From Candidatus Saccharimonadia bacterium (lineage in GTDB: Bacteria > Patescibacteriota > Saccharimonadia > UBA4664), in NCBI GenBank assembly GCA_041743505.1, contig JBGTMQ010000003.1, forward strand, positions 25,148 through 89,147: a stretch of DNA of 64,000 nucleotides, given 5' to 3'. The notes beneath the pieces are model-generated. The model had not been told where the DNA came from, made no database searches, and worked only from the letters and a program-made list of their open reading frames with translations. Within the stretch, counting starts at the first letter, position 1, and each line of letters starts with the position of its first letter. The position numbers and the translations under genes are program-made. Of this stretch, positions 8,087-34,823 are shown piece after piece.

Positions 8087-11000
8087 TTACTCACCAACAA
8101 TCACATCGCCTTTTTCATCAACATAGACCTCACCCTTGGCCAATTTAGGTGGCTTTTGCGTCAAAGTGGAGGCGACAGGCTCCGGCTTAGGTTTACGGTT
8201 AGCAGATGGCAATATCAACTTGCCGGGCAAAGAATCAGATTTTTGCTCTGGCTGCTCCTCGGTCTCCTCAGACTTCTCGGACATCTCAGCATGTTCCGCC
8301 GCCGGCACCGCATGCTCATGATGCTCTTCACGTGGCTCCTGAGGTTTAGAGGGCTTCTTAATATCAGCCAACCGATGACGCCTTGGCTGTTCAGCAGGCC
8401 TCTTTGACTGAGCCTCTTCTGCCTTCACGGGCAGCGTTTCGGCTTCAGGTGCTTCTGTTCTAGACTCATGCTCAGGTACCGGCGCCGGCTCTGGTGCTTC
8501 GGCCAACTTGGCCGCTCTGGCCTTAGCCACATCACTAGCCACCAAGGATTCGGCCTGCGGCAACCCCACGTCTGGTTCAAGGAATGAAACTGACGCAGGA
8601 GCTGGTTCCGGCTCAGGCTTTGGTACTGGCGCTGGCGCCGGCGCCGGCCGTGATTCCAGCTTCGGCTCAGGCCGCGGTTCCGGCTGCGGCTTCATCACCG
8701 GCTTTGACACTGGCGGTACCTGCTTAATTGGCGTCTGAACCGGCTTCACTGGGCTACCTGCCGGTCCCGGCCTGGCGCCTGGCGGCGGTGGCGCGTCAGT
8801 CTTGGCGCTCAAAGCAGCCTGTTTCCGCTCAGCCTCCAGTTCTGCCTCCAGCTCCTGCTGCAACTGGTCACGACGAGGCACAATCGGCTCAAGCGGCATG
8901 ATGACCTTTTGGTGTGTGTGAGTAAATGTGTGTTCCATAGACGGCTGGTCACTCCGGGGAGTCTCATCGTCATCCTCATCAGGCATCTGGTCCTTTGGTA
9001 TCGCCGGCCCAACCCAGTGTCTTGAAGAGTCGTCCGCTTCACCATCGTGACCTTTCTTCGAGTGGGTTGCCTCACCAGAGCCCGCCAATGCCCGGTGCTC
9101 TTTCTCCGGCTTAATGAGAGATTCACTCATCAGCTTATCAATCTCTTGCTCTGCCTGAGCCACCGGATTCTCACTGTGTCCGGACTCATCGGACGCGGGA
9201 GCGGCATTGGACTCAGGCGAAGCCTTTGGTTCGGAGTCCAAAGCCGGCACATAAGGCGATGACGTTAAGGCTTGGGCAGCCTTGCGCTTGGCTGCCGCCT
9301 CCATAACTGCAGCCAACGTCTCCTCAGTGCTACGTACGGCCACCGGAGGCTTTGGTTTGACTACTGGAGGAGGCGGAGTAGCTGGTGCTGGAGGCTCGGC
9401 CGGCTTAGGCGTCGGCAATATTGACTCCGATTTCGGAGCAGCAGATACCACCACTTCTGGTGCTAATACAGGTTTCACCGGAACCGCAGGCTTATCCTCA
9501 AACCCAACCCCTGGCGCTACCAGGTTCTCGGGTACTAGCGTGGTGCCCTCCTCTTCACTAAATTGACTCTTTTCCAGCCTTGGCGGTTCAGGTTCCGGCA
9601 ATACCGGTGCAATCGGAGTCGGCTTAGACTCCGGCATAGGAGCAGGCTCAGGCGCCGGTTCAGGAGCTGGTTTTGATACCGGCTCAGGAGCAGGTTTCAG
9701 TATTGGTTCGAAGGCTGGTTTGGGCAGCTCAACCGGCACCGGCGTGGTCTGCGACTGGCCAATAGGTGGCGCACCAATTGGCGGCGGAGCAATTACCTGG
9801 GCTAGCTCTGCTGAAGTAATATCCGACGACTGCTCGGGCGAAGCCGGCGCCACCGGAGCCGAAACCGGAGCTGAAGCGGGCATCGGCAGCAGAGCCGCGG
9901 GTGGAGAAGCCGGCGCATCAGTAGTCAAAGCAGCCGGACCAATAGGAGTCAATGGTAACGCCTTCTCAGATTTCTGATCCGGAACCAGTGTCGGAAATGG
10001 CTCATCAACTGGCCGCTCAAGTACTGTTTCCAGGCTTGGATCTACAAAATGAATAAGTGATCCTACAGCATCATCATAGCTCTGCTCCGGCTGAGCAACC
10101 GCACTGACCGGTTCAGAAACCACCGCGGTAGGTGCCACAGGTTCAGGCACTGCCGCGAGTACCGGCGTCACCACGGAAGCCGGTTTAGGCCTAAATACAG
10201 GCTCAGAAGCTGCCGGCTGATTAGAGACCATGGGCTCCGAAGCCGGATAAAGCGGCTCAGGCTCAGGTATTGGCAACGAAGACAGTGTGGTCACCGGCGA
10301 TGCTATCGCCTGAGGATCGGTAGGCTGCATCGAGGCCGGGACAGGTAGCGGCGGCTTAGGCTCTTCAATCATAGGCGCTGGCTGAATCAGCGCGGTCGCC
10401 GGAGCAGGAGGCGACACAAGAGTTGGAGCCGGCTGTACCTCTGGAGCCGGCTCTGCTATTACCGGAGTCGGCGTCGGCTCTATGACAGGCAATACCGGTG
10501 GTGGCGGAGGTGGCGCAATAGGCTGGTACACCGACGAAACCGACGCCGGAATTGGCTCCGAAGCAGCTACTGACGCTAGCTCAGCCTCAGACGGAGGGCC
10601 AATAGGAGCCGGCGGCCCGATGGGCGCTACAGGCTCGGGGGCAACATCAGGTACAGAAACCGGAACTGGTAGCGGCAAAGCCGCTTCTTCAGGCTCAGGG
10701 ACCGGCTGGGGTGCGCCCAACAAAGGAATCTCCGCCATCGGATCCATAGCAGGATCATACGGCGGTGGTGGCGGCACCGCCGGTTCTGCAGGCTGCTCAA
10801 CCGGAGCCGGTTGGGCTACCCGCGGTTCCGCACCCGGCGGAATCAGTGGGATATTCAACAGGTCATCGCTGGCACCCGACGATGCCAGCGGCACCGGACC
10901 AGGCCGGCGGCCACCGGTAATATCAGTAATCGATAACCGGTTCTGATCACCAGGAACAGGTGCCGGAGGAGCAGCACTCAGCTCAGGAAGCTCTGGCTCT

Positions 11001-13990
11001 TCAGGAATAATCGGCGAAACCGGCTCCATCAGTTGCCCAGCAGTATTAACGATTGGAGGCACATTATCCGCAGCCGGAATTCCAGGTACACCAGCATCAA
11101 CCGGCGGCGCACCAATAGGTGGCGGCGTATGGGCCAGACCCGTCCCACCCACAGGCGCCGAAGTTAGTGGCAGCGGAATGGGCGGCGCACCAATCGGCGG
11201 GGTTACCGCCGACAACGGATCCAGCGTAGGCGCTGGTAATACCGGCGTAGGCACCTGATTAGACTGTAACGCGGGCATAATCAATTCCGGTGCCGCTTGC
11301 ACCACCGGCGGTAACGGCTCTGGCGTAGGCGCAAGTGCCAGTGGCTGATTAATAGGTGGTGCGCCAATCGGCGGAGGCGTCATCGGTGCGGGCTCAGCAG
11401 CCGCAACCGGCGGCGCAGCAGCCGCCGAAACCAGTGCCGGTTGTAGCTCCGGTGCCGCAAGGACTACCGGCACCGGAGCCGGCTCTGGCGCCGGCACAAT
11501 CACCGTCGGCACAGCCGGTGCTGGCACTGCGACCGGAGCCGGAGCTGGCACAATCGGGGCCGGAACAGGAGGCGGGGGCAGACTCGGTGTCACTCCCGGC
11601 TCTCGGCCGGTCAACCTAGCCGCAATATCCGCCTCCACCACATCCTTAGCATGACCAAACTTAGCCGCGCTCAGCTGCTTAATCGCCAGCCCCAATTCCG
11701 GATTAGCCAAGCCCAGCGGCGCCAGGTTATGCACGGTAAATGGCTGGCTTGGCAGGCCACCGATCATCAACCGCATCGCCGCATGATAGTTCGGGATATT
11801 CACCAGATCCGAAGTATCAAACACCGGAGCAAACTGCTTAACCATAAACTCGGCGTCATCCGGACCCATCCGGTGCGCCACAATCGTGCCAATATTACCA
11901 AATACCGCATCCCGGATCTCAGTCGTCAATTGGCCGATAAACTGGTTTGCTACCACCAGGTTAAGCCGGTACTTTCGCGCCTCACTCAAAATACTGGCAA
12001 ACGAGTCAGTCGAAAAGTTCTGAAACTCATCCACGTACAGGCAAAAATCGTTGCGCTCGCCCTCAGGAAGGTCAGCCCGGCTCATAGCCGCAGCCTGGAG
12101 CTTAATCACAAAGATCATGCCCAAAAGCTGCGAGTTGAGCTCACCAACCTTGCCCTTGCTCAGGTTCACAATCAGGATTTTCTTGTTATCCATGATGTCG
12201 CGCAGGTTAAAGGCGCTGTTGGTCTGGCCCAAAATATTGCGCATCATCTCGTTGTTCTGGAAGGCGCCAAACTTACTCACGAACCAACCCAGCATTTCGC
12301 TCTTGTGATAATCCGAAGTCTGGCCCATTTCCTTGGTCCAGAAATCAATAACTGTCGGGTCCTTCAAATAGCGAAATTTGTGCTTGAGATAATCTGTATC
12401 AGTAAATACTTTAGGAATCTCAATAAACGTCGATCCATGCGGGTCGCTCATCAATGTCAGCGCGGCATTGCGGTACCAATGCTCATAGCGCGGCCCAATT
12501 ATACCGGTATGACCGGGATCGTACAGCTTGTACAGCATCCCGATCGTCTCTTGGATAATAAAGTCTTTTTGCGCTGGATCACTAAATTCAAACAGGTTCA
12601 AACCTAGCGGAAACTCAGTATCAGCCGGATTAAAGTACACTACGTCCTCGGCTCGGTTTTTGGGCACCATAGCCAGCAATTTTTCCGCCGTGTCACCATG
12701 CGGATCTATAAACGCAAAACCGTTGCCGGCCAGCATATCCTGCACCGCCAGGTTCTCCAGCAATGTCGACTTACCAGTCCCGGTCTGACCCAAGATGTAA
12801 GTGTGCCGGCGACGGTCCTCCACACTCAGCCGAATCTCTTTCTTAACCCCACGAAACTCGTTATAACCAAACAGCGCACCTTCAGCAGGCAACTGTGTCG
12901 GGCCATCTATCTGCTTACTCTGCTGACGCTCTACATTGCTAGTCGGTATAAACTGCGAATCCGGCAGATGAAACAACGTCGCCAACTCAACCGAATTCAA
13001 AACACTTGAGCGAAGTTCAGGCGGGAAAAACCGGAAGATAAAAGCCGTAACCAACCCCTGAACATCCACAGCCGGCAAAAATTTAAACCCATTCAAGCCC
13101 GGCCGCTCAAACAGCGCAAAAGCCGTCGCGATATCGCGTAGCAACTGCTGGCTTCGGCTCACGCTCTCTGTCGATACAAGCACCCGCACCAGCACCTCAA
13201 ATCCAGGATGCTTAGTTTTCTCCTCAACCGCTTCAATTGCCCCCAGCTCCAGATTCGACAAACCCGTCGACTGAGGCTGATGACTCTGATCCTCCGACCG
13301 CTGCTGGGTCGGGGACTTGAATGCCGCCTTAGCTATATCCATCGGCGTAATCTGCATATTGCCGGCCCGGCCCTTGCGCAGTTTAGTAGTCAAGGTAGTC
13401 GCAGACTTGACCCAGTTAGTGCTAGCCGGCCGCACCATAATTTGAATCGCCGCGCCATCACCTTTGCCCAGCGTCGACAGAGTAGTAATAATTGCTTCCA
13501 TCGGGTCACGCTCGATCTGCTCGTAGGTCGCCAGCGGATAGGCACTAGCATTTTTGAGCACCATTTCGCCACCCATGGTCGCAGCCAGCCGGCCTTCCTG
13601 GTTGAAGATATTGTGATCCTCAACTTCCTCCATACGGGCACCCGGATAAGCCGTCTGGATAGCTTTTTCAATCGTACTCACCATACCCACAGGCACCGCC
13701 GCATAAAAATGCACCAACCCGTTCGCGGCAATTAACTCCAGCGCAATATGCCGCTGTCCGTAGAACGTACTCTTAAAACCCTCCGTAGCAGTTCCGGCAA
13801 TCAAGTTATATAGCACCTCAGCGTGGCTCGTTTTCTCGCGCATAACCTCGCGTACATCCCGGCTGCCCGCCACCGTATCTTCGCTGGGTGGAGGCAAATG
13901 AATCAACACCGGCACCATCTTGAGACCGCGCTCAATCGCCTTAGCCCGCCGCAGCTTCCGCTGATATGTCCAATACGCCACACCCGCCAA
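8087..13990 (-). CDS. Giant T4SS-type P-loop ATPase (VirB4/TraC or VirD4/TraG superfamily) with an ~1100-aa C-terminal proline-rich disordered extension
   Basis: 1967 aa. The N-terminal ~800 aa carry Walker A GQTGTGKSTLLENL, a following FAFIDPHGD motif, Walker B LYVDEFQNF, and ARKYRLNLVVANQF, a T4SS ATPase signature (RKYGxxxxxxTQ-like). The remainder is Pro/Ala/Val/Glu-rich with four PPIGAPP(I/V) repeats, EPAP/KPxP tracts and an acidic DEDDDE segment. The annotated start is TTG. An in-frame hydrophobic segment (IVIVVIIFLLLAAGL) and a strong SD GGAGGTGA lie just upstream, between 13991 and 14065. The true start is therefore probably a non-canonical codon further upstream. Confidence 0.7.
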   Translation of the reverse strand: MAGVAYWTYQRKLRRAKAIERGLKMVPVLIHLPPPSEDTVAGSRDVREVMREKTSHAEVLYNLIAGTATEGFKSTFYGQRHIALELIAANGLVHFYAAVPVGMVSTIEKAIQTAYPGARMEEVEDHNIFNQEGRLAATMGGEMVLKNASAYPLATYEQIERDPMEAIITTLSTLGKGDGAAIQIMVRPASTNWVKSATTLTTKLRKGRAGNMQITPMDIAKAAFKSPTQQRSEDQSHQPQSTGLSNLELGAIEAVEEKTKHPGFEVLVRVLVSTESVSRSQQLLRDIATAFALFERPGLNGFKFLPAVDVQGLVTAFIFRFFPPELRSSVLNSVELATLFHLPDSQFIPTSNVERQQSKQIDGPTQLPAEGALFGYNEFRGVKKEIRLSVEDRRRHTYILGQTGTGKSTLLENLAVQDMLAGNGFAFIDPHGDTAEKLLAMVPKNRAEDVVYFNPADTEFPLGLNLFEFSDPAQKDFIIQETIGMLYKLYDPGHTGIIGPRYEHWYRNAALTLMSDPHGSTFIEIPKVFTDTDYLKHKFRYLKDPTVIDFWTKEMGQTSDYHKSEMLGWFVSKFGAFQNNEMMRNILGQTNSAFNLRDIMDNKKILIVNLSKGKVGELNSQLLGMIFVIKLQAAAMSRADLPEGERNDFCLYVDEFQNFSTDSFASILSEARKYRLNLVVANQFIGQLTTEIRDAVFGNIGTIVAHRMGPDDAEFMVKQFAPVFDTSDLVNIPNYHAAMRLMIGGLPSQPFTVHNLAPLGLANPELGLAIKQLSAAKFGHAKDVVEADIAARLTGREPGVTPSLPPPPVPAPIVPAPAPVAVPAPAVPTVIVPAPEPAPVPVVLAAPELQPALVSAAAAPPVAAAEPAPMTPPPIGAPPINQPLALAPTPEPLPPVVQAAPELIMPALQSNQVPTPVLPAPTLDPLSAVTPPIGAPPIPLPLTSAPVGGTGLAHTPPPIGAPPVDAGVPGIPAADNVPPIVNTAGQLMEPVSPIIPEEPELPELSAAPPAPVPGDQNRLSITDITGGRRPGPVPLASSGASDDLLNIPLIPPGAEPRVAQPAPVEQPAEPAVPPPPPYDPAMDPMAEIPLLGAPQPVPEPEEAALPLPVPVSVPDVAPEPVAPIGPPAPIGPPSEAELASVAASEPIPASVSSVYQPIAPPPPPPVLPVIEPTPTPVIAEPAPEVQPAPTLVSPPAPATALIQPAPMIEEPKPPLPVPASMQPTDPQAIASPVTTLSSLPIPEPEPLYPASEPMVSNQPAASEPVFRPKPASVVTPVLAAVPEPVAPTAVVSEPVSAVAQPEQSYDDAVGSLIHFVDPSLETVLERPVDEPFPTLVPDQKSEKALPLTPIGPAALTTDAPASPPAALLPMPASAPVSAPVAPASPEQSSDITSAELAQVIAPPPIGAPPIGQSQTTPVPVELPKPAFEPILKPAPEPVSKPAPEPAPEPAPMPESKPTPIAPVLPEPEPPRLEKSQFSEEEGTTLVPENLVAPGVGFEDKPAVPVKPVLAPEVVVSAAPKSESILPTPKPAEPPAPATPPPPVVKPKPPVAVRSTEETLAAVMEAAAKRKAAQALTSSPYVPALDSEPKASPESNAAPASDESGHSENPVAQAEQEIDKLMSESLIKPEKEHRALAGSGEATHSKKGHDGEADDSSRHWVGPAIPKDQMPDEDDDETPRSDQPSMEHTFTHTHQKVIMPLEPIVPRRDQLQQELEAELEAERKQAALSAKTDAPPPPGARPGPAGSPVKPVQTPIKQVPPVSKPVMKPQPEPRPEPKLESRPAPAPAPVPKPEPEPAPASVSFLEPDVGLPQAESLVASDVAKARAAKLAEAPEPAPVPEHESRTEAPEAETLPVKAEEAQSKRPAEQPRRHRLADIKKPSKPQEPREEHHEHAVPAAEHAEMSEKSEETEEQPEQKSDSLPGKLILPSANRKPKPEPVASTLTQKPPKLAKGEVYVDEKGDVIVGE

Positions 13991-14061: not shown

Positions 14062-14505
14062 CTATTTATCCTCGGGCTTTTTGACCTCATGACCATAGCG
14101 CTTCTTCAGGTAATCCACTTGCAAAGACTCAACCGCCTCCTCCTCGGCATACGGGTTACCAGCAGTCTGCGCGATAGCTTGCTCGGCCGCCTCAACCCAC
14201 TCGGGCTCAACCACGTCCTGATCGGCCGCGATCTGCGGTGCTGAAACAACCGGTGCAGCCGGCGCCGGCGCCGCCGCAATCGCATTCGCCACATCCTGAG
14301 CCGTCAAATGTGGTGGCGTAGCTTGCGGCTGGCCGGTATTTTGCGGTGCAGTCGGCGCGGACTGAGGTGCCGGCACGACTTCAGGCGTGGCCGGCCTCAA
14401 CGCCTGCTCCTGCGTACCAGTACCAATCAATTGATCCGGCGCCACATTTCGGTTCGGCATCTGCTCCGGATTGGGAGTACTTTGTGTGTCCATAATTAGA
14501 TTCAT
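14062..14505 (-). CDS. Small Pro/Ala/Gln-rich protein co-transcribed upstream of the giant ATPase
   Basis: 147 aa. Low-complexity Pro-rich centre and a conserved-looking C-terminus (PEWVEAAEQAIAQTAGNPYAEEEAVESLQVDYLKKRYGHEV). Its stop lies under 30 nt from the ATPase start region, on the same strand. Confidence 0.5.
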   Translation of the reverse strand: MNLIMDTQSTPNPEQMPNRNVAPDQLIGTGTQEQALRPATPEVVPAPQSAPTAPQNTGQPQATPPHLTAQDVANAIAAAPAPAAPVVSAPQIAADQDVVEPEWVEAAEQAIAQTAGNPYAEEEAVESLQVDYLKKRYGHEVKKPEDK

Positions 14506-14631
14506 TATATCATTTCTATCTTAATTTCGCTTGTGTTCCAACAACAAAATTCATAAACAAAAAAATGTCAGAAGGGATTTATAATTAACCCATCCCAACG
14601 GCACGACAAATCAGCCAAAGGAGGTGAAATC

Positions 14632-14736
14632 ATGCTACGAAGGGTAGTTATGAGGCTTCTCGGAGTCCAGATGCCTGCGGGAGCTTCTAGCTCAAGGGCA
14701 TCATGCGATGACTTCTGCTCCCTCCAGACAATCTAG
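14632..14736 (+). CDS. 34-codon sORF with a perfect Shine-Dalgarno (AAAGGAGGTGAAATCATG)
   Basis: Hand-translated: MLRRVVMRLLGVQMPAGASSSRASCDDFCSLQTI. It sits in the intergenic region between two minus-strand genes. Support is the RBS quality only. Confidence 0.25.
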   Translation: MLRRVVMRLLGVQMPAGASSSRASCDDFCSLQTI

Positions 14737-14763
14737 TTGTAGCCATCAAGCTACGGCTAACAA

Positions 14764-14791
14764 GGCCCTTATATCGAAAGGTATAAGGGCC
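14764..14791 (-). terminator. Hairpin directly 3' of the L,D-transpeptidase gene
   Basis: Perfect 10-bp stem ggcccttata/tataagggcc with an 8-nt loop. On the minus strand it is followed by TTGTT. A weak U tract. Confidence 0.4.
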
Positions 14792-14792
14792 A

Positions 14793-16232
14793 TTACTTAT
14801 GCACCCAGACCGGCGTGCCCACATCAGCCCAATTATAAATGAAAGCCGCTGCCGCTTCCGGCATGTTCACGCACCCATGTGAGCCACCATAGTAATAGTC
14901 CGAACCGCCGAAGTTGCCGTTTCGCCAACTGGCATCATGCATTCCATAACCCGAATAGAACGGCATCCAATATTTTACAAAGACATTGTAGTTATAGCGC
15001 GGTCCATAAGCATTGCCTATTAAACGGGTGTTGGTCGTCTTGTGATTAATACTGAACAAGCCCGTTACCGTAGGGAAACCCGCCCCAGTAGCTCCGGAGG
15101 TAATCGGCGTTTCATAAACCACATTGTGGTCCTGCCACACCCACAACCGCTGACGGCTCAGGTTGATCTCGATATACCGACCGTAATCCAACGTCACTAT
15201 TGTGTTTGAAACGGTTTTAAACGGCACCGGGTGTGAGGTAATCGCATAGGTCAAGGGCTGGTTACGCATCACCGCATCAGCTACCGCCTTAACCGCCGCA
15301 TCCTGATCAATCGCCAGTCCATCCACGCCTTCTTGCGTCGTTTTCTTAACGCCGTTCTCTATAGTAATCTTCTTAGCTACGGGTGCTACATCCAACTGGT
15401 TAGAAATAGTCTGGATATAGCCTTTAAGCTGGGCGCTATCTATCTTAGGCATCAACCGCGCCGCCGAATCTTTTTGTGCTTTCTCAAACGCCAACCATTG
15501 GCCAATATCAGCCGCGGTCGGAGTATAGGTCTTGTCCGCGTACGTCAGCACAATCGGTGTTGCCATATGCTGCTTTATCGAGTCAATTGTCGGCGTCAGC
15601 TCAGCTACCTGAATGTCGGCCAATTGCGGGCGGGGCTTTAACTGCATTGAATCCCCCGTAGGGAACTGCAGGTCTTGCTCCACCAGCCGCATTAACCCGA
15701 GCTTATCAACTGTAATACCACTCTTATCCGGAACGGTCTGAATTTGGCCGTCCTTAACTACGACGCCGGCATCAACTGGCTGCACACCAACCTGGTCAGC
15801 CACACTGCCAACAAAACTGGCCAGCTGCCGGCGGTCCAAATGGTAAATCAAAGGCACCGGCGCTGTATGCAATGCCGGATACCAACCGCCACGCCCAACC
15901 TGGTAAGCATTGCTAATGGTAGCCTCAGGGTCAAAAGTGACCCCTAGCTGGACTGCCTTTACCGAATACTTTTGACCTGCCACCGTCAATTTCAGCTCAT
16001 ATGCGGCAGCCTCTTTTTGCAATACAACCCGCGCCTGGTCCACCGGCATTCCACCGATATTTTGGCCAGCCGCCACCACGCCCGGCATGATCTTTCCGTC
16101 ATACCAGGAGCCCAAAGCCAAGTGAAGCGCCAAACCCAAGAAAGCAACACATGCAGCCACACCCACGACGCGGGGCACTGTCGTATAACCATCGGAACCA
16201 TGAAGTTCCAGATCGAGTCTTCGCCTCACCAT
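14793..16232 (-). CDS. L,D-transpeptidase (YkuD family) with N-terminal membrane anchor
   Basis: The C-terminal catalytic domain ends ...GYGMHDASW...GGSHGCVNMPEAAAAFIYNWADVGTPVWVHK. This has the conserved His and the SHGC(V/I) Cys motif. An N-terminal TM helix is present. Confidence 0.8.
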   Translation of the reverse strand: MVRRRLDLELHGSDGYTTVPRVVGVAACVAFLGLALHLALGSWYDGKIMPGVVAAGQNIGGMPVDQARVVLQKEAAAYELKLTVAGQKYSVKAVQLGVTFDPEATISNAYQVGRGGWYPALHTAPVPLIYHLDRRQLASFVGSVADQVGVQPVDAGVVVKDGQIQTVPDKSGITVDKLGLMRLVEQDLQFPTGDSMQLKPRPQLADIQVAELTPTIDSIKQHMATPIVLTYADKTYTPTAADIGQWLAFEKAQKDSAARLMPKIDSAQLKGYIQTISNQLDVAPVAKKITIENGVKKTTQEGVDGLAIDQDAAVKAVADAVMRNQPLTYAITSHPVPFKTVSNTIVTLDYGRYIEINLSRQRLWVWQDHNVVYETPITSGATGAGFPTVTGLFSINHKTTNTRLIGNAYGPRYNYNVFVKYWMPFYSGYGMHDASWRNGNFGGSDYYYGGSHGCVNMPEAAAAFIYNWADVGTPVWVHK

Positions 16233-16320
16233 GACACGATTATAACGGTAATGGTTACTAGAAAGCTAGCATTATTTGAAAGAGGGAGAGAAGCAGGAAT
16301 ATGGACCCCTCAGCGGCTAA

Positions 16321-19053
16321 TTATGCCCGGACCTTAGCCCCAAATTTCCTCGATAAGATTGCCAAAGCCTTTCGCTCAATATCAGCCGCTTCCGCGTCAG
16401 TAGGGGTTCGGTCAGCATGCGCCACCTTCAAATGCAACGCCAAACTCTTGTGGCCGGCCGGCACGCCTTCACCGTAATAATCGCTCACAAAACTAACCTG
16501 GGTCTGCGGCAAGTCAGCCAAGGCCACCGCCACATCCTGCCAAGCCGTACTCGCCGGCACCACAACAGCCAGGTCCCGCCCGACACTGGGGAAGCGCTCC
16601 AAGCCGGCAAACGCGCGCACCCCAAACCGTTTCAACAAAGCGTCAGCATCCAGCTCCACATACGCGGCCTCACCCGCAACCTTCAGCCGCCGCAGCCCCT
16701 CAGGATCAAGTTGACCAATCGTACCCAGCTGCCGTCCGTCCAGCTTAATTTTGGCCACCCGGCCACCAGCATACAGCGCCGGAACCTCCGCCACCGGCTC
16801 CACCGCCAGATTCACACCGAGCTCATCAGCCAACGTATCCAGCAAGCCCTTGGCATGCTGGTACGATTCATCCGGCCGCGCCACCATAATACCCAAATGC
16901 ATTGGCTCATCCGGCTGGTCGGCGGCGCCACGCTTTTCAAACACCCGGCTCAGTTCATAGAAGGCCAGCTCAGCAGCGTACCCACGGTTGCGCGCTAGCA
17001 CACTCAGGTGGCTGGCCAAAAGAGAGGACCGCAAGTACGCCTGCTCAGTCGATAGCGGATTTCTCAGTTTCAAATGCTTCTTCGCGTCCAAACCAGCGCC
17101 GGCCAATTGTTCTTCACTCACAAATGAGTATGTCATCACTTCAAACAACCCGGCGCCATACAACACCTGCTGCAACCGCCGCCGCTTGGACCGCTCCGAG
17201 TCAAATGACACCTCCTGCGGCTGCCACGCCGGAATCTTAGCCGGCACCCGCTCGTAACCCAGCACACGGACAATTTCTTCCACCAAATCCTGAGCTTCTT
17301 TTAGGTCCGGACGCCACCAGGGAATAGCCGGCACCGACAAATAATCATCCAAATTATCCACGTAACGTCGCGCACCCAGGTACTCCGAATGTTTGGTTAT
17401 GACCTCCAACACAGCTTCGTGCACGCCCGGCTGACCAGCATCCGATGCCTGAACGATCTTGCCATCACCAACATACACAGCCACATGGGCAACACCTTCA
17501 CGCTCTTTAGAATCAAGCTTAACCCAATCGCCACCAGCAAATAACAAATCACCCGGCACCAGCTCAGATTGCTTAACCGGCCACCCGGACTTAAATTGCT
17601 GATGCGCCGTATGCCCAATATTCACGCCAATCAGGGAATAGAGGTAGTCGGTTAAGTACGAGCAGTCAAACGCATCGGTCCCATCGGTTTTATAACGAGC
17701 CCCAAACTTATACGGCTTTCCGATGTGGCTCCGAGCCTCCTGAGCCACATCAAATACCCGGGCCTCAATCTGCAGCCGGGCTAGCGTCTGGACAGCCTCA
17801 TGACCCAATACCTCAAAACCCAATAACCGGTTCAGCAATGACCTTCGCAGACCAATCCTTTGCACCCAGGGCCACACGTTCAGCTGCCGCTGAACCGCCC
17901 CAACCCGGCCACCCGCCACTTCAACCAGTAACTCTACTGCCCGCGCCACCGCCACCGGCGCCAATTGCACCGGCAATCCGCGCTCAAATCGTGCGCTGGC
18001 TTCAGTGCGCAAGCCATGCCGCTTGGCCATCTTGCGCACTGTCGCAGCATCAAATGTAGCTGCCTCAAGCACAATTTCCTTGGTCTTTTCATCAACCTGC
18101 GTGCTGGCTCCACCCATCAAGCCGGCCAGCCCGATCGGTCCGGTAGCATCGGCAATAACCAGATCCTGATGGCTTAATTTCCGCTCCACACCGTCCAATG
18201 TCACTAGTTTTTCGCCTTGCCGAGCCAAACGCGCTTCGAGCGGCAGCCTAACCTTAGCAGCATCGTACGCGTGCAGCGGCTGACCGAATTCCAAATTCAC
18301 ATAGTTAGTCACATCCACTATCGGACTAATCGACCGCACACCCACCGCCTGCAACGCACTTGTCATCCAACGAGGGGAGGGGGCCTTCACATCCACCTGC
18401 AACGTCGCCAGCATAAACTGGCTTGCCTTCATGTCATCCAACATCAACTTTACGCCAGCATCCGTCTCCGCCTCCGGTTGCGGCTCCGGCAAATCCTTAA
18501 GCTCCGCGCCGGCAATCGCCCCGATTTCGCGCGCCAAACCAACCACGCTCAACAGATCAAACCGGTTGGCTTGGGTCTTGATATCCACGATTCCACCACT
18601 GGGATATATGTCGCACAATCTTGCCCCAACCACAGCCGTATCTGACAGCTCCAGAATCTGCTCGTGATTTGTCCCTATACCGAGCTCACGCTCACTACAC
18701 AGCATTCCTTCGCTTAACTCACCGCGCAACTTAGCCGCAGCTATCTTGTCGCCACCTGGGAGGGTAGAGCCGACTTGAGCAAAGGCTACCTTAAGCCCTT
18801 TTCGGACATTCGGCGCTCCGCAAACCACCCGCACTTCCCGATCACCCGCATCAACGAACACTAAACTTAGTCGGTCTGCCTTTGGATGCTGCATAACTTT
18901 TTTAACCAGCGCTACGATGACATTTCTATCTATCGGCTCTGAAGAAATAAATTGTTCAACCTCAATTCCAGCCTGCTCCAATGCCTCCACAATCTCATGG
19001 TCCGACATTGTGCGACGTAGCCATTCTTTAACCCAAGGTGTATAAATCTTCAT
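16321..19053 (-). CDS. pheT: Phenylalanine--tRNA ligase beta subunit with an inserted NlpC/P60 domain
   Basis: The N-terminal tRNA-binding domain, B3/4, the B5 motifs (LLGFEV...; VPAIPWWRPDL...DLVEEIVRVLGYERVPA), the core and the C-terminal FDX-ACB-like region are all recognisable. The start is probably M11 (MKIYTPWVKEW) at 19053; the ORF track begins at 19083. Residues ~442-575 (17359-17760) form an NlpC/P60-like block: GKPYKFG, FDCSYL, HTAHQQ, PGDLLFAG, HVAVYVGDGKIVQA. Confidence 0.9.
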   Translation of the reverse strand: MKIYTPWVKEWLRRTMSDHEIVEALEQAGIEVEQFISSEPIDRNVIVALVKKVMQHPKADRLSLVFVDAGDREVRVVCGAPNVRKGLKVAFAQVGSTLPGGDKIAAAKLRGELSEGMLCSERELGIGTNHEQILELSDTAVVGARLCDIYPSGGIVDIKTQANRFDLLSVVGLAREIGAIAGAELKDLPEPQPEAETDAGVKLMLDDMKASQFMLATLQVDVKAPSPRWMTSALQAVGVRSISPIVDVTNYVNLEFGQPLHAYDAAKVRLPLEARLARQGEKLVTLDGVERKLSHQDLVIADATGPIGLAGLMGGASTQVDEKTKEIVLEAATFDAATVRKMAKRHGLRTEASARFERGLPVQLAPVAVARAVELLVEVAGGRVGAVQRQLNVWPWVQRIGLRRSLLNRLLGFEVLGHEAVQTLARLQIEARVFDVAQEARSHIGKPYKFGARYKTDGTDAFDCSYLTDYLYSLIGVNIGHTAHQQFKSGWPVKQSELVPGDLLFAGGDWVKLDSKEREGVAHVAVYVGDGKIVQASDAGQPGVHEAVLEVITKHSEYLGARRYVDNLDDYLSVPAIPWWRPDLKEAQDLVEEIVRVLGYERVPAKIPAWQPQEVSFDSERSKRRRLQQVLYGAGLFEVMTYSFVSEEQLAGAGLDAKKHLKLRNPLSTEQAYLRSSLLASHLSVLARNRGYAAELAFYELSRVFEKRGAADQPDEPMHLGIMVARPDESYQHAKGLLDTLADELGVNLAVEPVAEVPALYAGGRVAKIKLDGRQLGTIGQLDPEGLRRLKVAGEAAYVELDADALLKRFGVRAFAGLERFPSVGRDLAVVVPASTAWQDVAVALADLPQTQVSFVSDYYGEGVPAGHKSLALHLKVAHADRTPTDAEAADIERKALAILSRKFGAKVRA

Positions 19054-19206
19054 CCCATAACTCCAATCATTCGACCATTCCATTCCAACGGCGCACCCAC
19101 TTCCGCGCCACCAAGCATGCCAGTAACTACACCCGTCCGTACTGTATCTAAACTTATCCTCGGGTACGCATCGAGCATATTTGTAGTTTCTACAACACTC
19201 ATCATA

Positions 19207-20235
19207 TTAAAACTGTTCGAGGAATTTAAAATTTGGCCTCCAAAACTCGCGCACATCATCGACACCATATTTAATCGCCGCAATTCGCTCCGGCCCAAAT
19301 CCGAACGCAAACCCGCTGTAAACGTCCGGATCAATGCCAACGTTCCGCAGCACCTGCGGATGCACCATGCCGGCACCACCAAGCTCCAACCAGCCAGACC
19401 CACCGCACAAATGACAAGCCTGATCCTTAACCCGGCCCAAACCCGAACAAGCCGAGCATGTCGCGTCCATTTCCACACTTGGCTCTGTATAGGGAAAATA
19501 GTTCGATCGCAATCGCACCTTAGTATCCTCACCCAAAACTCCTCGCATCATCGCCTCAAGCGTCCCCTTCAAATCCGCTAGGCTAATCCCCTTGTCCACC
19601 ACCAAACCCTCGATCTGATAAAAGCTCCACGAGTGGCGGGCATCCTCATCTTCATTCCGATAAACTTTGCCAGGAGCAATAATTCGAACTGGCAATTTAT
19701 CTTTGTTAAGCTCCAAATGCCGAACCTGTATCCCCGATGTATGAGTCCGCGGCAAATGCGCCTCTTCCAGATAAAAAGTATCCTGCATATCCCGGGCTGG
19801 ATGATCTTTCCCTACTAACAATGCCTCAAAGTTATACCATTCCGTCTCAACCTCCGGGCCTTCAGCCACTTGATAACCCATCTGCCAATACAGATCAATC
19901 AGCTCATCCAACACCACACCCACGGGATGCCGGTGACCCAGCTTGGGCCGGATGCCTGGAGTCGTCACATCAAACGGCGCACTCATCACGGCTGCCGTCT
20001 CGGCTTGCCGCAGGGTCTCTCCCCTCGCATCCAACGCCGTCTCCACGACCCGCCGCAACCGGTTAGCCTCAGCCCCAGCCGCCGCCCTTTGCTCTGCCGG
20101 CAACGCTCCTACAGCCTTAAGCTGCTCAGTCACCTGCCCTTTTCGACCCAACAAGCCAACCCGCAACGCCTCCAGTGCTTGTGCATTCGCCGCCGCCTCT
20201 ATTTGATTCAATAACTCCTGCTCGTTCATGGCCAT
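19207..20235 (-). CDS. pheS: Phenylalanine--tRNA ligase alpha subunit
   Basis: 342 aa, class II aaRS motifs. Its start overlaps the stop of the upstream membrane-protein gene (ATGGCCATGA), indicating coupling. Confidence 0.95.
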   Translation of the reverse strand: MAMNEQELLNQIEAAANAQALEALRVGLLGRKGQVTEQLKAVGALPAEQRAAAGAEANRLRRVVETALDARGETLRQAETAAVMSAPFDVTTPGIRPKLGHRHPVGVVLDELIDLYWQMGYQVAEGPEVETEWYNFEALLVGKDHPARDMQDTFYLEEAHLPRTHTSGIQVRHLELNKDKLPVRIIAPGKVYRNEDEDARHSWSFYQIEGLVVDKGISLADLKGTLEAMMRGVLGEDTKVRLRSNYFPYTEPSVEMDATCSACSGLGRVKDQACHLCGGSGWLELGGAGMVHPQVLRNVGIDPDVYSGFAFGFGPERIAAIKYGVDDVREFWRPNFKFLEQF

Positions 20236-20660
20236 CGAAACCTTACATATACCTCGGCAATTACCAACAATAATCCCAGTAGTATAGCATCTCTAAGGTT
20301 AAATTGGTGCAGCGAGCTCAATGCCATCATCGCCGTAATCCACCAAGCAGCCAGCATCCCCTGCCGCCACGAATACCGCAGCCGGCTAGCCCCGTTCTCG
20401 TGCACCCGCAAAAACCGCTTAATCCCATACAGTACCAACGCAATGATCGCCGACAAGCTAAACAACAGCAACACAAACCATAACGTCACCCCCACCGGCC
20501 CAATGGCCAGCGGATTGGTCAGAAGCACGCTCAACACTAAAATCATCCCTGACATCAGAGACCAGACAACGAGCAAACTCAGCCGCCCAAAAGTGGGCAT
20601 CGGATTCCTCTCTAGGCTTACTATGAACGCATTATGACATCTCAAGCCTTGTATCGGCAA
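20226..20660 (-). CDS. Small polytopic membrane protein, first gene of the pheS-pheT operon
   Basis: 144 aa with 3-4 predicted TM helices. Its stop overlaps the pheS start. Confidence 0.6.
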   Translation of the reverse strand: MPIQGLRCHNAFIVSLERNPMPTFGRLSLLVVWSLMSGMILVLSVLLTNPLAIGPVGVTLWFVLLLFSLSAIIALVLYGIKRFLRVHENGASRLRYSWRQGMLAAWWITAMMALSSLHQFNLRDAILLGLLLVIAEVYVRFRWP

Positions 20661-32780: not shown

Positions 32781-34823
32781 GTGTCAGAACTCATTACCCG
32801 CACAGCCCGGTTAGTCCCTTACGCCAAACGGCCAAAGCAGGTTCCTAGTTTTGTGACCGCCTATAGCTATGAGCCGCTGGCCGAAGAGCCCGGCGCCGAT
32901 CTCGGCAACCTATTTGTCATCATCGAAGTGCTTGTCTCCGGCCGGTCCAGCGAAGACGTAGCTGACTTGGTCATCAGTACCATGGCCGACCACTACTACA
33001 ACCAAGCCACCGATCAATCCGACCCGCTACGCCGGTTCGAAGCTGCCATCAAGGCCACCAATCAAGAGCTGGCCAACTACGTCAATCAAGGCAATGCCGC
33101 CTGGATCGGCAAAATGAGCGCTGTAGTCGCCATCCAAACCGGATCACAGCTGCACCTGACTCAAACAGGCTCGGCAGAAGCATTCTTGTATCGCGGCAAG
33201 TCAGCTGCCCGCATCTCGGCCAACCAAGGAGCCGCCCGCCCAACCGCTCCCAGCAAGACCTTCGGTTCCATCGCCAGTGGCGATCTGGAGCCCGGCGACC
33301 GGCTGCTGCTAGCCACCCCCGCGCTCGTCCATCAGCTCTCCTTGACCAAGCTTAAAACCATTGTCAGCGACACCAGCCCCAACAATGCTATTGCTGAAAT
33401 TACCCAACTCCTGCGCGGCGGCGCGTCCGGCCGTATCGCTGCACTGGTCATTGAGATCACGACGCCGGAACTAGCCGCCTTGCAAGTCCGGTCTGAGGAA
33501 CCAAGCGAGATCCAGCTCGGCACCCCGGACAACGTGCTTGAGGCCGCCAAAATGGCCGCCGCACCAATCGCCCAAGCCACAGTCAGTTCCAGCCGGCGAG
33601 CCGGCGCTGCCGCTAAAACCGGCTGGAAAAAAAGCCGGCCTCACCTGCAACAAGCGCTCCAGGTTACCACCGGCTTCATCCGCGAGCAACTAGCCCACAA
33701 GGACTCGCGCAAGCGACTATTCGTCGCCGCCGCTATTCTGCTCGGGTTCATCATCGTCCTCTGGCAGTGGCAAACTGGCACTGTCCGCACCAAGCAATTA
33801 GAAACCCGCTATCAAAACGACTATAACCAATACCAGCTAGCCGTCACCGCCGCCAACAATGGCGACAAAACCACCGCCCGGAACATGCTCTCCAGGCTCC
33901 AAGGCGAGCTGACTGGCCTGTTTCAAGCTCCCGGCCGCAAAAGCCTCGATGCCAAACTCAAGCAATCCGCCACTGGACCTAAGTCAGTCGCCGAGCTGGC
34001 TGGCCTAACTGCCACTAAGCTAGACCAAATTGAAGGCCTACACCGCGTCGACGTCAGTACCGTCGCTTCATTTAGTAGTATAAAAAACAGCAAGCCAACC
34101 CATTTTGAGCTCGCCGGCAACAAAGCCTACACCTTCGACGAAGGTAAAAACCCGTCCCTCTACATTGCAAATATCACAACAAATATCATCCAGAAATCCA
34201 AGGCAGACACTTCACGGCTTGGCGCTATCACTGCTACCACCATATCGAGCAGCTCAGATGGTATCTACCTCTTAACCGACAAGCCATCAGTCTGGTTTTA
34301 CAACTTTGCCGCCGATTCCCTAACCGAACAGTCGGTCGGTGTAGGCCAATGGCCGGCAGGCACAGCCATCGCATCATATGCAGGCAATCTCTATATCCTG
34401 GGAGGTGGCATGGTCTACAAACATGTCCGCACCTACAGCGGCTATTCGCCCAAAGCCCCCTACCTGGCTCCACAGACCCCTGGCCTAGCCAACGCCACCG
34501 CCATGGCAGTCGATGGTATGGTGTTTCTATTATCACCCTCAGGGTTGAGAGAATTCTCAGCCGGCGCCTTCAAGCAAGCCGCGGACACTCCTTCAACACT
34601 CAAGAACGCGCGCCTAATACGGTCAAGCGGCGGCGGCAACTCCGTCATCGCCATAGCCGGCGATACCAAGCGCATTGGTTTCTGGGATAACACCAAGACT
34701 CTAAAGTTCGCCAAGCAATACGAGCTAGGCGGCGTCTCGTCCCTGCACGACGCCGCCTACGACCCCAAGACCCAAACTGTTTACGCGTTAGTGAACAGCC
34801 GGCTCGTGAAGTTTACGATCTAA
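32781..34823 (+). CDS. Membrane-anchored PP2C/SpoIIE-like phosphatase with a large C-terminal extracytoplasmic domain
   Basis: The N-terminal ~240 aa show PP2C-like blocks: LFVIIEVLVSG...; GSAEAFLYRGKSAARIS; GDLEPGDRLLLATPAL. A single TM follows (LFVAAAILLGFIIVLWQW), then a ~330-aa beta-rich domain. The call is tentative. Confidence 0.5.
   Translation: MSELITRTARLVPYAKRPKQVPSFVTAYSYEPLAEEPGADLGNLFVIIEVLVSGRSSEDVADLVISTMADHYYNQATDQSDPLRRFEAAIKATNQELANYVNQGNAAWIGKMSAVVAIQTGSQLHLTQTGSAEAFLYRGKSAARISANQGAARPTAPSKTFGSIASGDLEPGDRLLLATPALVHQLSLTKLKTIVSDTSPNNAIAEITQLLRGGASGRIAALVIEITTPELAALQVRSEEPSEIQLGTPDNVLEAAKMAAAPIAQATVSSSRRAGAAAKTGWKKSRPHLQQALQVTTGFIREQLAHKDSRKRLFVAAAILLGFIIVLWQWQTGTVRTKQLETRYQNDYNQYQLAVTAANNGDKTTARNMLSRLQGELTGLFQAPGRKSLDAKLKQSATGPKSVAELAGLTATKLDQIEGLHRVDVSTVASFSSIKNSKPTHFELAGNKAYTFDEGKNPSLYIANITTNIIQKSKADTSRLGAITATTISSSSDGIYLLTDKPSVWFYNFAADSLTEQSVGVGQWPAGTAIASYAGNLYILGGGMVYKHVRTYSGYSPKAPYLAPQTPGLANATAMAVDGMVFLLSPSGLREFSAGAFKQAADTPSTLKNARLIRSSGGGNSVIAIAGDTKRIGFWDNTKTLKFAKQYELGGVSSLHDAAYDPKTQTVYALVNSRLVKFTI

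Follow-up and report, generated by a model that had tools for sequence, protein, structure and literature searches.

Can an essential aminoacyl-tRNA synthetase carry a cell-wall peptidase within one of its core domains and, if so, is that peptidase likely to be active? The question is raised by pheT, the gene for the beta subunit of phenylalanyl-tRNA synthetase (PheRS), in a stretch of 64,000 nucleotides from a Candidatus Saccharimonadia bacterium (assembly GCA_041743505.1, contig JBGTMQ010000003.1, positions 25,148 to 89,147 of the forward strand), referred to here as the window. A block resembling the NlpC/P60 peptidases (MEROPS family C40) lies in-frame between the two halves of the B5 domain of this PheT. 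An earlier, sequence-only reading of the DNA had offered two explanations, namely that the synthetase has acquired a functional peptidase domain or that it holds a degenerate structural copy of one. The comparisons presented here favour an acquired functional domain, and the degenerate copy is less supported, given the conservation of the block and the retention of its catalytic Cys and His in nearly all aligned relatives.

An intact synthetase with a divided B5 domain

The only pheT within the 64-kb window is an uninterrupted open reading frame (ORF) of 920 amino acids (aa) from its first ATG, in agreement with the earlier claim that PheT is intact (Table 1). The true start is probably M11 at position 19053, since the ten N-terminal residues of the longer form (MEWSNDWSYG; 19053-19083) are missing from homologues and from the alignment with E. 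coli PheT. Starting there shortens the protein to 910 aa, a form identical to a database protein (P0001). Pfam detects all of the tRNA_bind, B3_4, B5, tRNA_synthFbeta and FDX-ACB domains in the window protein, and the TIGR00472 (pheT_bact) profile reaches 594.6 bits, its cutoff being 402.65. The AlphaFold2 (AF2) model of full-length PheT has a predicted local distance difference test score (pLDDT) of 93.7, with values of 94-98 across the insert region, and resembles solved PheT chains in a fold search (E=1e-74). The gene for the alpha subunit, pheS, adjoins pheT in all 50 of the related loci whose DNA extends to the pheS position, out of 52 loci in total. The window pheT probably encodes the housekeeping beta subunit of PheRS. 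Its bacterium is a member of the Saccharimonadia (TM7), within the candidate phyla radiation (CPR/Patescibacteria), as the names of the nearest proteins and loci also indicate.

Whether or not the insert is there, five residues of PheT (R240, T249, N250, H261 and E330, numbered as in P0001) show little or no variation; we take them to be the B3/4 editing site by assignment from T. thermophilus and E. coli PheRS. One candidate role for the insert, the replacement of a degenerate editing site, was rejected on this ground. As the editing residues are conserved with and without the insert, it does not compensate for a lost site. All of the domains, the editing residues and the pheS-pheT operon are shared between the window and canonical PheT (E. 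coli 3pco_B, T. thermophilus 1pys_B).

What differs is the B5 domain. The TIGR00472 match falls into two stretches, the first of which stops at aa 442, and the Pfam B5 model matches at its positions 43-67 only, at aa 586-610. Alignment with E. coli PheT (3pco_B) pairs residues 11-440 of the window protein with 1-436, and residues 586-919 with 447-794, so that approximately 145 window residues stand where E. coli PheT has a B5 loop of approximately 10 residues. When the protein is aligned with 48 close relatives without the insert, the extra block covers aa 453-575 when defined by less than 20% column occupancy and approximately aa 443-575 by eye, which amounts to about 133 extra residues between the two B5 halves. 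Depending on the comparison, the canonical loop of about 10 residues is thus matched by 133-145 residues in the window PheT. The junctions read ...EAR|VFDV... and ...RRYV|DNLDD.... The placement of the block between the two halves of B5, at 17359-17760 (aa 442-575), had been proposed by the sequence-only reading and is borne out by Pfam, by the alignment of relatives and by the E. coli alignment.

The inserted block is an NlpC/P60 domain

The motifs on which the NlpC/P60 assignment was originally based (GKPYKFG, FDCSYL, HTAHQQ, PGDLLFAG and HVAVYVGDGKIVQA) are all present in the translation, and the profile search that had been suggested for the segment gave a clear answer. The Pfam NLPC_P60 family (PF00877) matches the whole protein with 53.0 bits and aa 442-575 alone with 58.1 bits (E=9.8e-16), compared to a cutoff of 23. 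Several NCBIfam models for peptidoglycan endopeptidases also match the insert, and models of active enzymes outscore that of RipD.

Structure prediction, likewise proposed as a check, leads to the same family. An AF2 model of the insert (145 aa) has a pLDDT of 95.2 and a predicted template-modelling (TM) score of 0.89. At E<=1e-3, a Foldseek search of the PDB with this model gave 65 matches, and the 50 listed among them are without exception NlpC/P60 proteins. The best is Acd24020 of C. difficile (7cfl), with a target-normalised TM score (TMt) of 0.86 and a root-mean-square deviation (rmsd) of 2.4 A. The other best matches, YkfC (3h41), MepS, LytE, CwlO, SagA, RipA and RipB, are all DL-endopeptidases. 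The insert superposes on solved DL-endopeptidases with rmsd values of 2.1-2.8 A and TMt values of 0.75-0.86 against isolated catalytic domains. In the predicted model, the insert is a papain-like alpha+beta fold of the canonical NlpC/P60 type.

Base composition differs slightly along the gene. The GC content of the insert (17359-17757) is 0.507, compared to 0.568 for the rest of 16321-19053, and the GC content at third codon positions is 0.521 compared to 0.612. Given the apparent age of the insert, discussed below, the lower GC content is not read as a sign of recent transfer. The loop that leads from the PGDxxF motif to the catalytic His (aa 517-532; window 17488-17535) varies widely in length and has approximately 16 aa here. 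It reaches up to approximately 55 aa in other Saccharimonadia, where it has a conserved motif of its own (W/Y..K....R.GV).

Catalytic residues and putative substrate pocket

The sequence-only reading expected a catalytic triad of Cys, His and a further His or Glu. The first two are present as Cys474, within D473-C474-S475, and His533, whereas the third position is occupied here by Gln545, which is neither His nor Glu. The spacing between His533 and Gln545 (12) is the same as that between His291 and His303 of YkfC. The third triad residue of NlpC/P60 enzymes is polar and more often His (PMC2954226). Across 98 aligned insert-bearing PheTs, this position holds His in 63, Asp in 8, Glu in 7, Asn in 6, Gln in 5, Met in 5, Phe in 2, Thr in 1 and Ala in 1.

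The catalytic Cys is kept in 96 of these 98 proteins, and so is the catalytic His. The exceptions are two sister PheTs (P0013 and P0017) in which Cys has become Ser, His has become Ala or Val and the third residue has become Phe, while the nested domain itself is retained. Judging from their sequences, these two look like a natural pseudo-enzyme variant. Since Cys and His are kept in 96 of 98 proteins down to approximately 30% domain identity, and decay jointly in the two exceptions, catalysis would normally be under selection. The nested domain is, on this evidence, probably catalytically active.

The pocket residues hint at a substrate class. In the numbering of BcYkfC, the gamma-D-Glu (S1) pocket of NlpC/P60 enzymes is formed by Tyr226, Trp228, Asp237 and Ser239, strictly conserved in the gamma-D-Glu-specific subset, with a small residue at 257 (Xu et al. 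2010, PMC2954226). The equivalents in the window PheT are Y458, F460 (at the Trp228 position), D473, S475 and A493. Among the 98 PheTs, the Tyr is kept in 96, the Asp in 97 and the Ser in 83 (the remainder having Gly), and position 228 is most often Trp (50), followed by Phe (18), Leu (14) and Tyr (11).

Distribution across the CPR/Patescibacteria

A survey of homologous pheT genes, which the earlier reading had also called for, found that the insertion is widely shared. PF00877 occurs in 72 of the 120 nearest PheTs (lengths of 896-959 aa) and is missing from the other 48 (678-795 aa). A phmmer search with the insert gave 599 cluster representatives at E<=1e-10, with 39 PheTs or PheT fragments among the best 150. 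A second architecture of 770-845 aa has no N-terminal tRNA_bind domain and carries NlpC/P60 at the identical place in B5, and there are further classes of insert-bearing PheT of 930-970 aa. A search with one of the tRNA_bind-less members led to Parcubacteria-type lineages (under the names Parcubacteria and Terrybacteria), in which insert-bearing PheTs (776-876 aa) occur beside insert-less ones (approximately 650-740 aa; Nealsonbacteria, Pacebacteria and Minisyncoccales).

The insertion point and the motifs FDCS, GDxxF, HxGxYxG and (G)ARR are common to all PheT classes, and the 98 aligned insert-bearing proteins, drawn from Saccharimonadia, Parcubacteria and other Patescibacteria, have a single insertion site. 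In addition, each GTDB species was represented by one genome in a pattern scan that used an alignment reaching Saccharibacteria-like genomes only; it recovered 52 loci. Nearly all of these are from Saccharibacteria, Saccharimonadia or Patescibacteria or bear no lineage name, and one has an archaeal label. Public names for insert-bearing genes are inconsistent and include 'beta subunit-related protein', 'hypothetical protein' and 'C40 family peptidase'.

Metagenome-assembled genomes labelled 'Candidatus Nanoarchaeia archaeon' and 'Candidatus Aenigmarchaeota archaeon' (L017, DATIHE010000064.1; P0267; P0268) contain a bacterial, CPR-type pheT. The synteny of L017 is Saccharimonadia-like, and these archaeal-labelled sequences are probably mis-binned contigs. 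Cluster members of the divergent PheT classes yielded almost no taxon names, the only ones being 'Aenigmarchaeota'.

Selection and evolutionary history

Compared pairwise among 72 Saccharimonadia sequences, the insert has a mean identity of 0.518, within the range of 0.37-0.63 for the other PheT domains. Judged by these identities, the insert and the essential domains of PheT are under equally strong purifying selection.

In a tree of NlpC/P60 domains, every PheT insert falls in a single clade, and this clade mirrors the lineages of the host PheTs. In a tree of PheT from which the insert columns were removed, insert-bearing proteins are basal and paraphyletic, and insert-less ones are nested among them at several places. 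For example, P0006, which has no insert, is placed in the P0001-P0006 clade at a bootstrap of 92/100, is 66-70% identical to its insert-bearing neighbours and has the gene order of the window at its locus. The nesting of insert-less PheTs among insert-bearing ones suggests precise losses, whose count is approximate, both trees being neighbour-joining trees. The simplest reading of these sequence comparisons is one old acquisition followed by vertical inheritance and repeated precise loss. Taken together, this structural and evolutionary description of the nested domain is held with high confidence.

Free-standing relatives of the insert

The nearest relatives of the PheT insert, placed within the insert clade of the domain tree, are proteins of the CPR that consist of the NlpC/P60 domain and B5-like flanks, without any other PheT domain. 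They are encoded by complete genes of approximately 190-220 aa (P0182, P0184, P0240, P0253, P0261 and P0392-P0400), come from Patescibacteria, including Vogelbacteria, and are annotated merely as 'NlpC/P60 family protein'. The catalytic Cys and His are kept. The canonical Arg, in the motif 'LPR', is also retained in these proteins, unlike in the PheT inserts of Saccharimonadia. Inspection of the sequences revealed no signal peptide or transmembrane segment.

Evidence for the B5-like flanks comes from profile comparisons. The N-terminal flank alone matches the N-terminal half of B5 with P values from 4e-6 to 1e-4 and, against a profile of full-length insert-less PheT, matches columns 303-361, the place where B5 is expected from the Pfam B3_4 and B5 coordinates of related PheTs. 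The C-terminal flank alone has no significant B5 similarity, but the local profile alignment of the whole protein spans the N-terminal half of B5, the NlpC/P60 domain and the C-terminal half of B5. At the loci examined, the free-standing genes are not adjacent to pheST and lie in unrelated genomic contexts. The existence of this family suggests that B5::NlpC/P60 is separable and behaves as an evolutionary module, able to exist without the rest of PheRS.

One locus with an insert-bearing Parcubacteria-type pheT (L056) and one with a free-standing gene (L060) have several neighbours in common, namely rplK, thyA, DHFR, dCMP deaminase and CTP_transf_like. These could represent conserved CPR synteny or the trace of a rearrangement around pheT.

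Possible functions of the nested domain

The explanation favoured overall, to which we give about an even chance of being right in full, is that the window PheT contains a PheRS-nested cytoplasmic peptide hydrolase of the gamma-D-glutamyl type. The nested domain would be an active thiol hydrolase. It would act in the cytoplasm, since PheT shows no export signal, and direct reading of the sequence found no signal peptide or transmembrane segment. Its substrates would be peptides containing gamma-D-Glu, for example peptidoglycan stem peptides or muropeptides, whether from turnover within the cell or from a host. PheRS, or merely B5, would serve as a scaffold, with an activity independent of the aminoacylation chemistry. 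The assignment of this particular substrate class and of a role in cytoplasmic recycling, which draws on analogy with known enzymes, is tentative and has a somewhat less than even chance of being correct.

The nearest functional analogy for a C40 domain without a signal is provided by the cytoplasmic murein-peptide peptidases YkfC of B. subtilis and DPP VI of B. sphaericus. In the YkfC subfamily, Asp256 and the equivalent of Tyr118 in an SH3b domain recognise the free N-terminal L-Ala of the substrate, whereas the insert has Thr or Ser at position 256 and no SH3b. Because both features are missing, the nested domain would not be limited, in the way of YkfC-type enzymes, to substrates with a free N-terminal L-Ala, and any restriction at the N-terminus of its substrates would differ from that of YkfC.

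Several observations weigh against the favoured explanation. Most NlpC/P60 enzymes work outside the cytoplasm. Many lineages can do without the insert, as its repeated losses show, and no insert-specific neighbour gene was seen among the loci compared. At the level of residues, the highly conserved Arg255 is replaced by His, Phe or Tyr in Saccharimonadia (His491 in the window PheT), the window protein has Phe at the Trp228 position and Gln as its third triad residue, and the YkfC marker Asp256 is replaced by Thr492 in the window and by Thr, Ser, Val or Asn in the family. Furthermore, Pfam gave no SH3b profile match in the window PheT.

An alternative is that the nested hydrolase is directed at tRNA and acts on the ester of aminoacyl- or peptidyl-tRNA, either as an extra proofreading enzyme or deacylase or in acyl transfer toward a peptidoglycan precursor, with PheRS or B5 positioning the tRNA. 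The domain is covalently joined to a tRNA-handling enzyme in many lineages, and the NlpC/P60 superfamily includes acyltransferases and amidases. The free-standing relatives retain the halves of B5, which is a putative DNA/RNA-binding fold (PMC10880493, PMC6035289), but B5 reportedly takes no direct part in aminoacylation (PMC10880493) and the free-standing module has none of the tRNA-binding or catalytic parts of PheRS. Moreover, the canonical B3/4 editing residues are fully kept, so that nothing has been replaced, the conserved pocket residues are those that bind gamma-D-Glu in peptidoglycan peptidases, and the nearest structures are all DL-endopeptidases. A tRNA-directed hydrolase is therefore considered unlikely.

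In another alternative, the insert is non-catalytic and, in the manner of RipD, an inactive member of the NlpC/P60 family, serves for binding or as a structural unit; it might sense muropeptides or stabilise PheRS. Its loss without loss of pheT, the retention of the domain with a destroyed triad in P0013 and P0017, the replacement of the Arg255 equivalent in Saccharimonadia and a weak match to the NCBIfam RipD model (36.6 bits against a cutoff of 215) would all be consistent with such a role. The presence of Cys and of His in 96 of 98 proteins each, their joint decay in the two exceptions and the higher scores of active-enzyme models make such a role improbable. Loss of both Cys and His, as in RipD, does not describe the window PheT, and P0013 and P0017 alone among the 98 fit that pattern.

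A more speculative variant starts from the module itself. B5::NlpC/P60 could be self-contained, with the winged-helix-like B5 delivering a cysteine hydrolase or acyltransferase to a substrate linked to tRNA or to another nucleic acid. This is regarded as quite unlikely. If it were true, Patescibacteria would possess a hitherto unknown enzymatic connection from aminoacyl-tRNA metabolism to peptidoglycan-peptide chemistry, for example a new kind of aminoacyl-tRNA proofreading, tRNA-dependent remodelling of stem peptides or control of translation by muropeptides.

The domain might also be a lysin directed at the host or the cell exterior, if PheRS reached the surface or the host through lysis or non-classical export, cut peptidoglycan there and so aided an epibiotic lifestyle. 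Among solved structures, its closest relatives are autolysins plus a hub hydrolase of a contractile system (7cfl, 8v3w_H and 9ubf), and the window encodes a type IV pilus-type ATPase, a feature associated with episymbionts (PMC11623550). PheRS, however, is an abundant cytoplasmic heterotetramer, neither PheT nor the free-standing relatives have a signal peptide or transmembrane segment, and no conserved secretion-related neighbour was present at the loci compared, all of which render an extracellular lysin very unlikely.

Finally, an artefact or selfish element (misassembly, frameshifted chimera, intein or recent mobile insertion), with which the slightly lower GC content of the insert would agree, is effectively refuted by the same in-frame architecture in independent NCBI, JGI, ENA and Logan assemblies and in 52 species genomes, by the lack of any Hint or intein match in Pfam and of an intein-type Cys/Ser ... 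His-Asn motif at the junctions, and by an insert clade that mirrors the host PheT lineages.

Relation to known systems

Aminoacyl-tRNA synthetases are known to acquire appended domains with extra functions. It is nevertheless unusual for a bacterial synthetase to enclose, in one of its core domains, a cysteine peptidase that is intact and kept by selection. Each of the two parts comes from a known family; what appears new is their nested architecture, its breadth across the CPR and the free-standing module of B5::NlpC/P60. No description of a PheT-nested NlpC/P60 domain was found in the open-access literature under combinations of NlpC/P60 or C40 with PheT, PheRS, B5, CPR or Saccharibacteria.

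The insert has the fold of the NlpC/P60 DL-endopeptidases, represented by Acd24020 (7cfl), YkfC of B. cereus (3h41), MepS/Spr of E. coli, LytE and CwlO of B. subtilis and RipA and RipB of M. tuberculosis. It also shares with them the D-C-S motif, the His and a polar third residue at canonical spacing, together with the Tyr, Asp, Ser and small residue of the gamma-D-Glu pocket, though with Phe at the Trp228 position in the window PheT. Unlike these secreted or lipoprotein hydrolases, it is nested in a cytoplasmic synthetase subunit and is not accompanied by SH3b, LysM or another wall-binding domain. Further differences are 'GA' in place of 'GG' in the PYxWGG motif, the replacement of Arg255 in Saccharimonadia and an extended, variable loop ahead of the catalytic His.

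The B5 region of PheT is reportedly prone to insertions and even to gene fission (PMC4975002). For example, pheT is split in Altiarchaeales and has short insertions in several taxa, in each case in the same poorly conserved region next to or within B5, which tolerates insertions and deletions (PMC4975002). Those cases are splits and short insertions, and none involves an entire enzymatic domain with conserved catalytic residues.

The insert marks a large part of the CPR/Patescibacteria, organisms with minimal genomes that depend on hosts for building blocks and so have reason to economise by fusing functions. If gamma-D-Glu peptides are cleaved in the cytoplasm, the domain would point to muropeptide salvage or cell-wall turnover in a group where the pathway is uncharted; if the substrates are linked to tRNA, it would represent a novel kind of activity associated with synthetases. 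Natural experiments are offered by the patchy occurrence of the insert and by its free-standing relatives. The inconsistent public annotation of insert-bearing pheT genes could also be corrected.

Genomic neighbourhood

The positions of the features discussed above are collected in Table 1.

Table 1. Coordinates of pheT, its nested domain and associated features (window positions; for the free-standing genes, positions within the named locus)
Feature	Position	Strand	Basis or remark
pheT, PheRS beta subunit with nested NlpC/P60	16321..19083	minus	ORF, Pfam and TIGR00472
Inserted NlpC/P60 (C40) domain, aa 443-575	17359..17757	minus	PF00877, AF2 and Foldseek; missing in 48 insert-less relatives
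Pfam NLPC_P60 envelope, aa 455-549	17437-17721	minus	
N-terminal half of B5, aa 403-442	17758..17877	minus	First TIGR00472 stretch; E. coli PheT alignment to 436; insert-less relatives
Linker and C-terminal half of B5, aa 576-610	17254..17358	minus	Pfam B5 at aa 586-610; E. coli PheT from 447
Codon of catalytic Cys474, in D473-C474-S475	17662..17664	minus	Aligns with DCS motif of solved NlpC/P60 enzymes
Codon of catalytic His533	17485..17487	minus	Profile alignment to solved enzymes
Codon of third triad position, Gln545	17449..17451	minus	12 residues past catalytic His
pheS, PheRS alpha subunit, directly upstream of pheT	19207..20235	minus	Phe_tRNA-synt_N and tRNA-synt_2d on identical gene in L001 (Pfam)
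Free-standing B5::NlpC/P60 gene, locus L057	6001-6618		
Free-standing B5::NlpC/P60 gene, locus L059	7001-7663		
Free-standing B5::NlpC/P60 gene, locus L060	7001-7582		

On the minus strand of the window, positions 14062-20660 encode, in this order, a small transmembrane protein, pheS, pheT, an L,D-transpeptidase and a Pro/Ala/Gln-rich protein of 147 aa, an arrangement kept across most of the 52 Saccharibacteria loci. The L,D-transpeptidase gene (14793-16232; 479 aa, with YkuD and PG_binding_4 domains) lies downstream of pheT. As a clue specific to the insert it was rejected, as it is found equally beside insert-less pheT (L054 and L055) and is missing from the Parcubacteria locus L056. Pfam returned nothing at E<=1e-5 for two further ORFs of the window, one of 1967 aa (8087-13990, minus strand) and one of 680 aa (32781-34823, plus strand). 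In the locus of a relative (L055), a DUF8128 protein of more than 1600 aa is encoded at the equivalent place downstream of the pheST-ykuD block.

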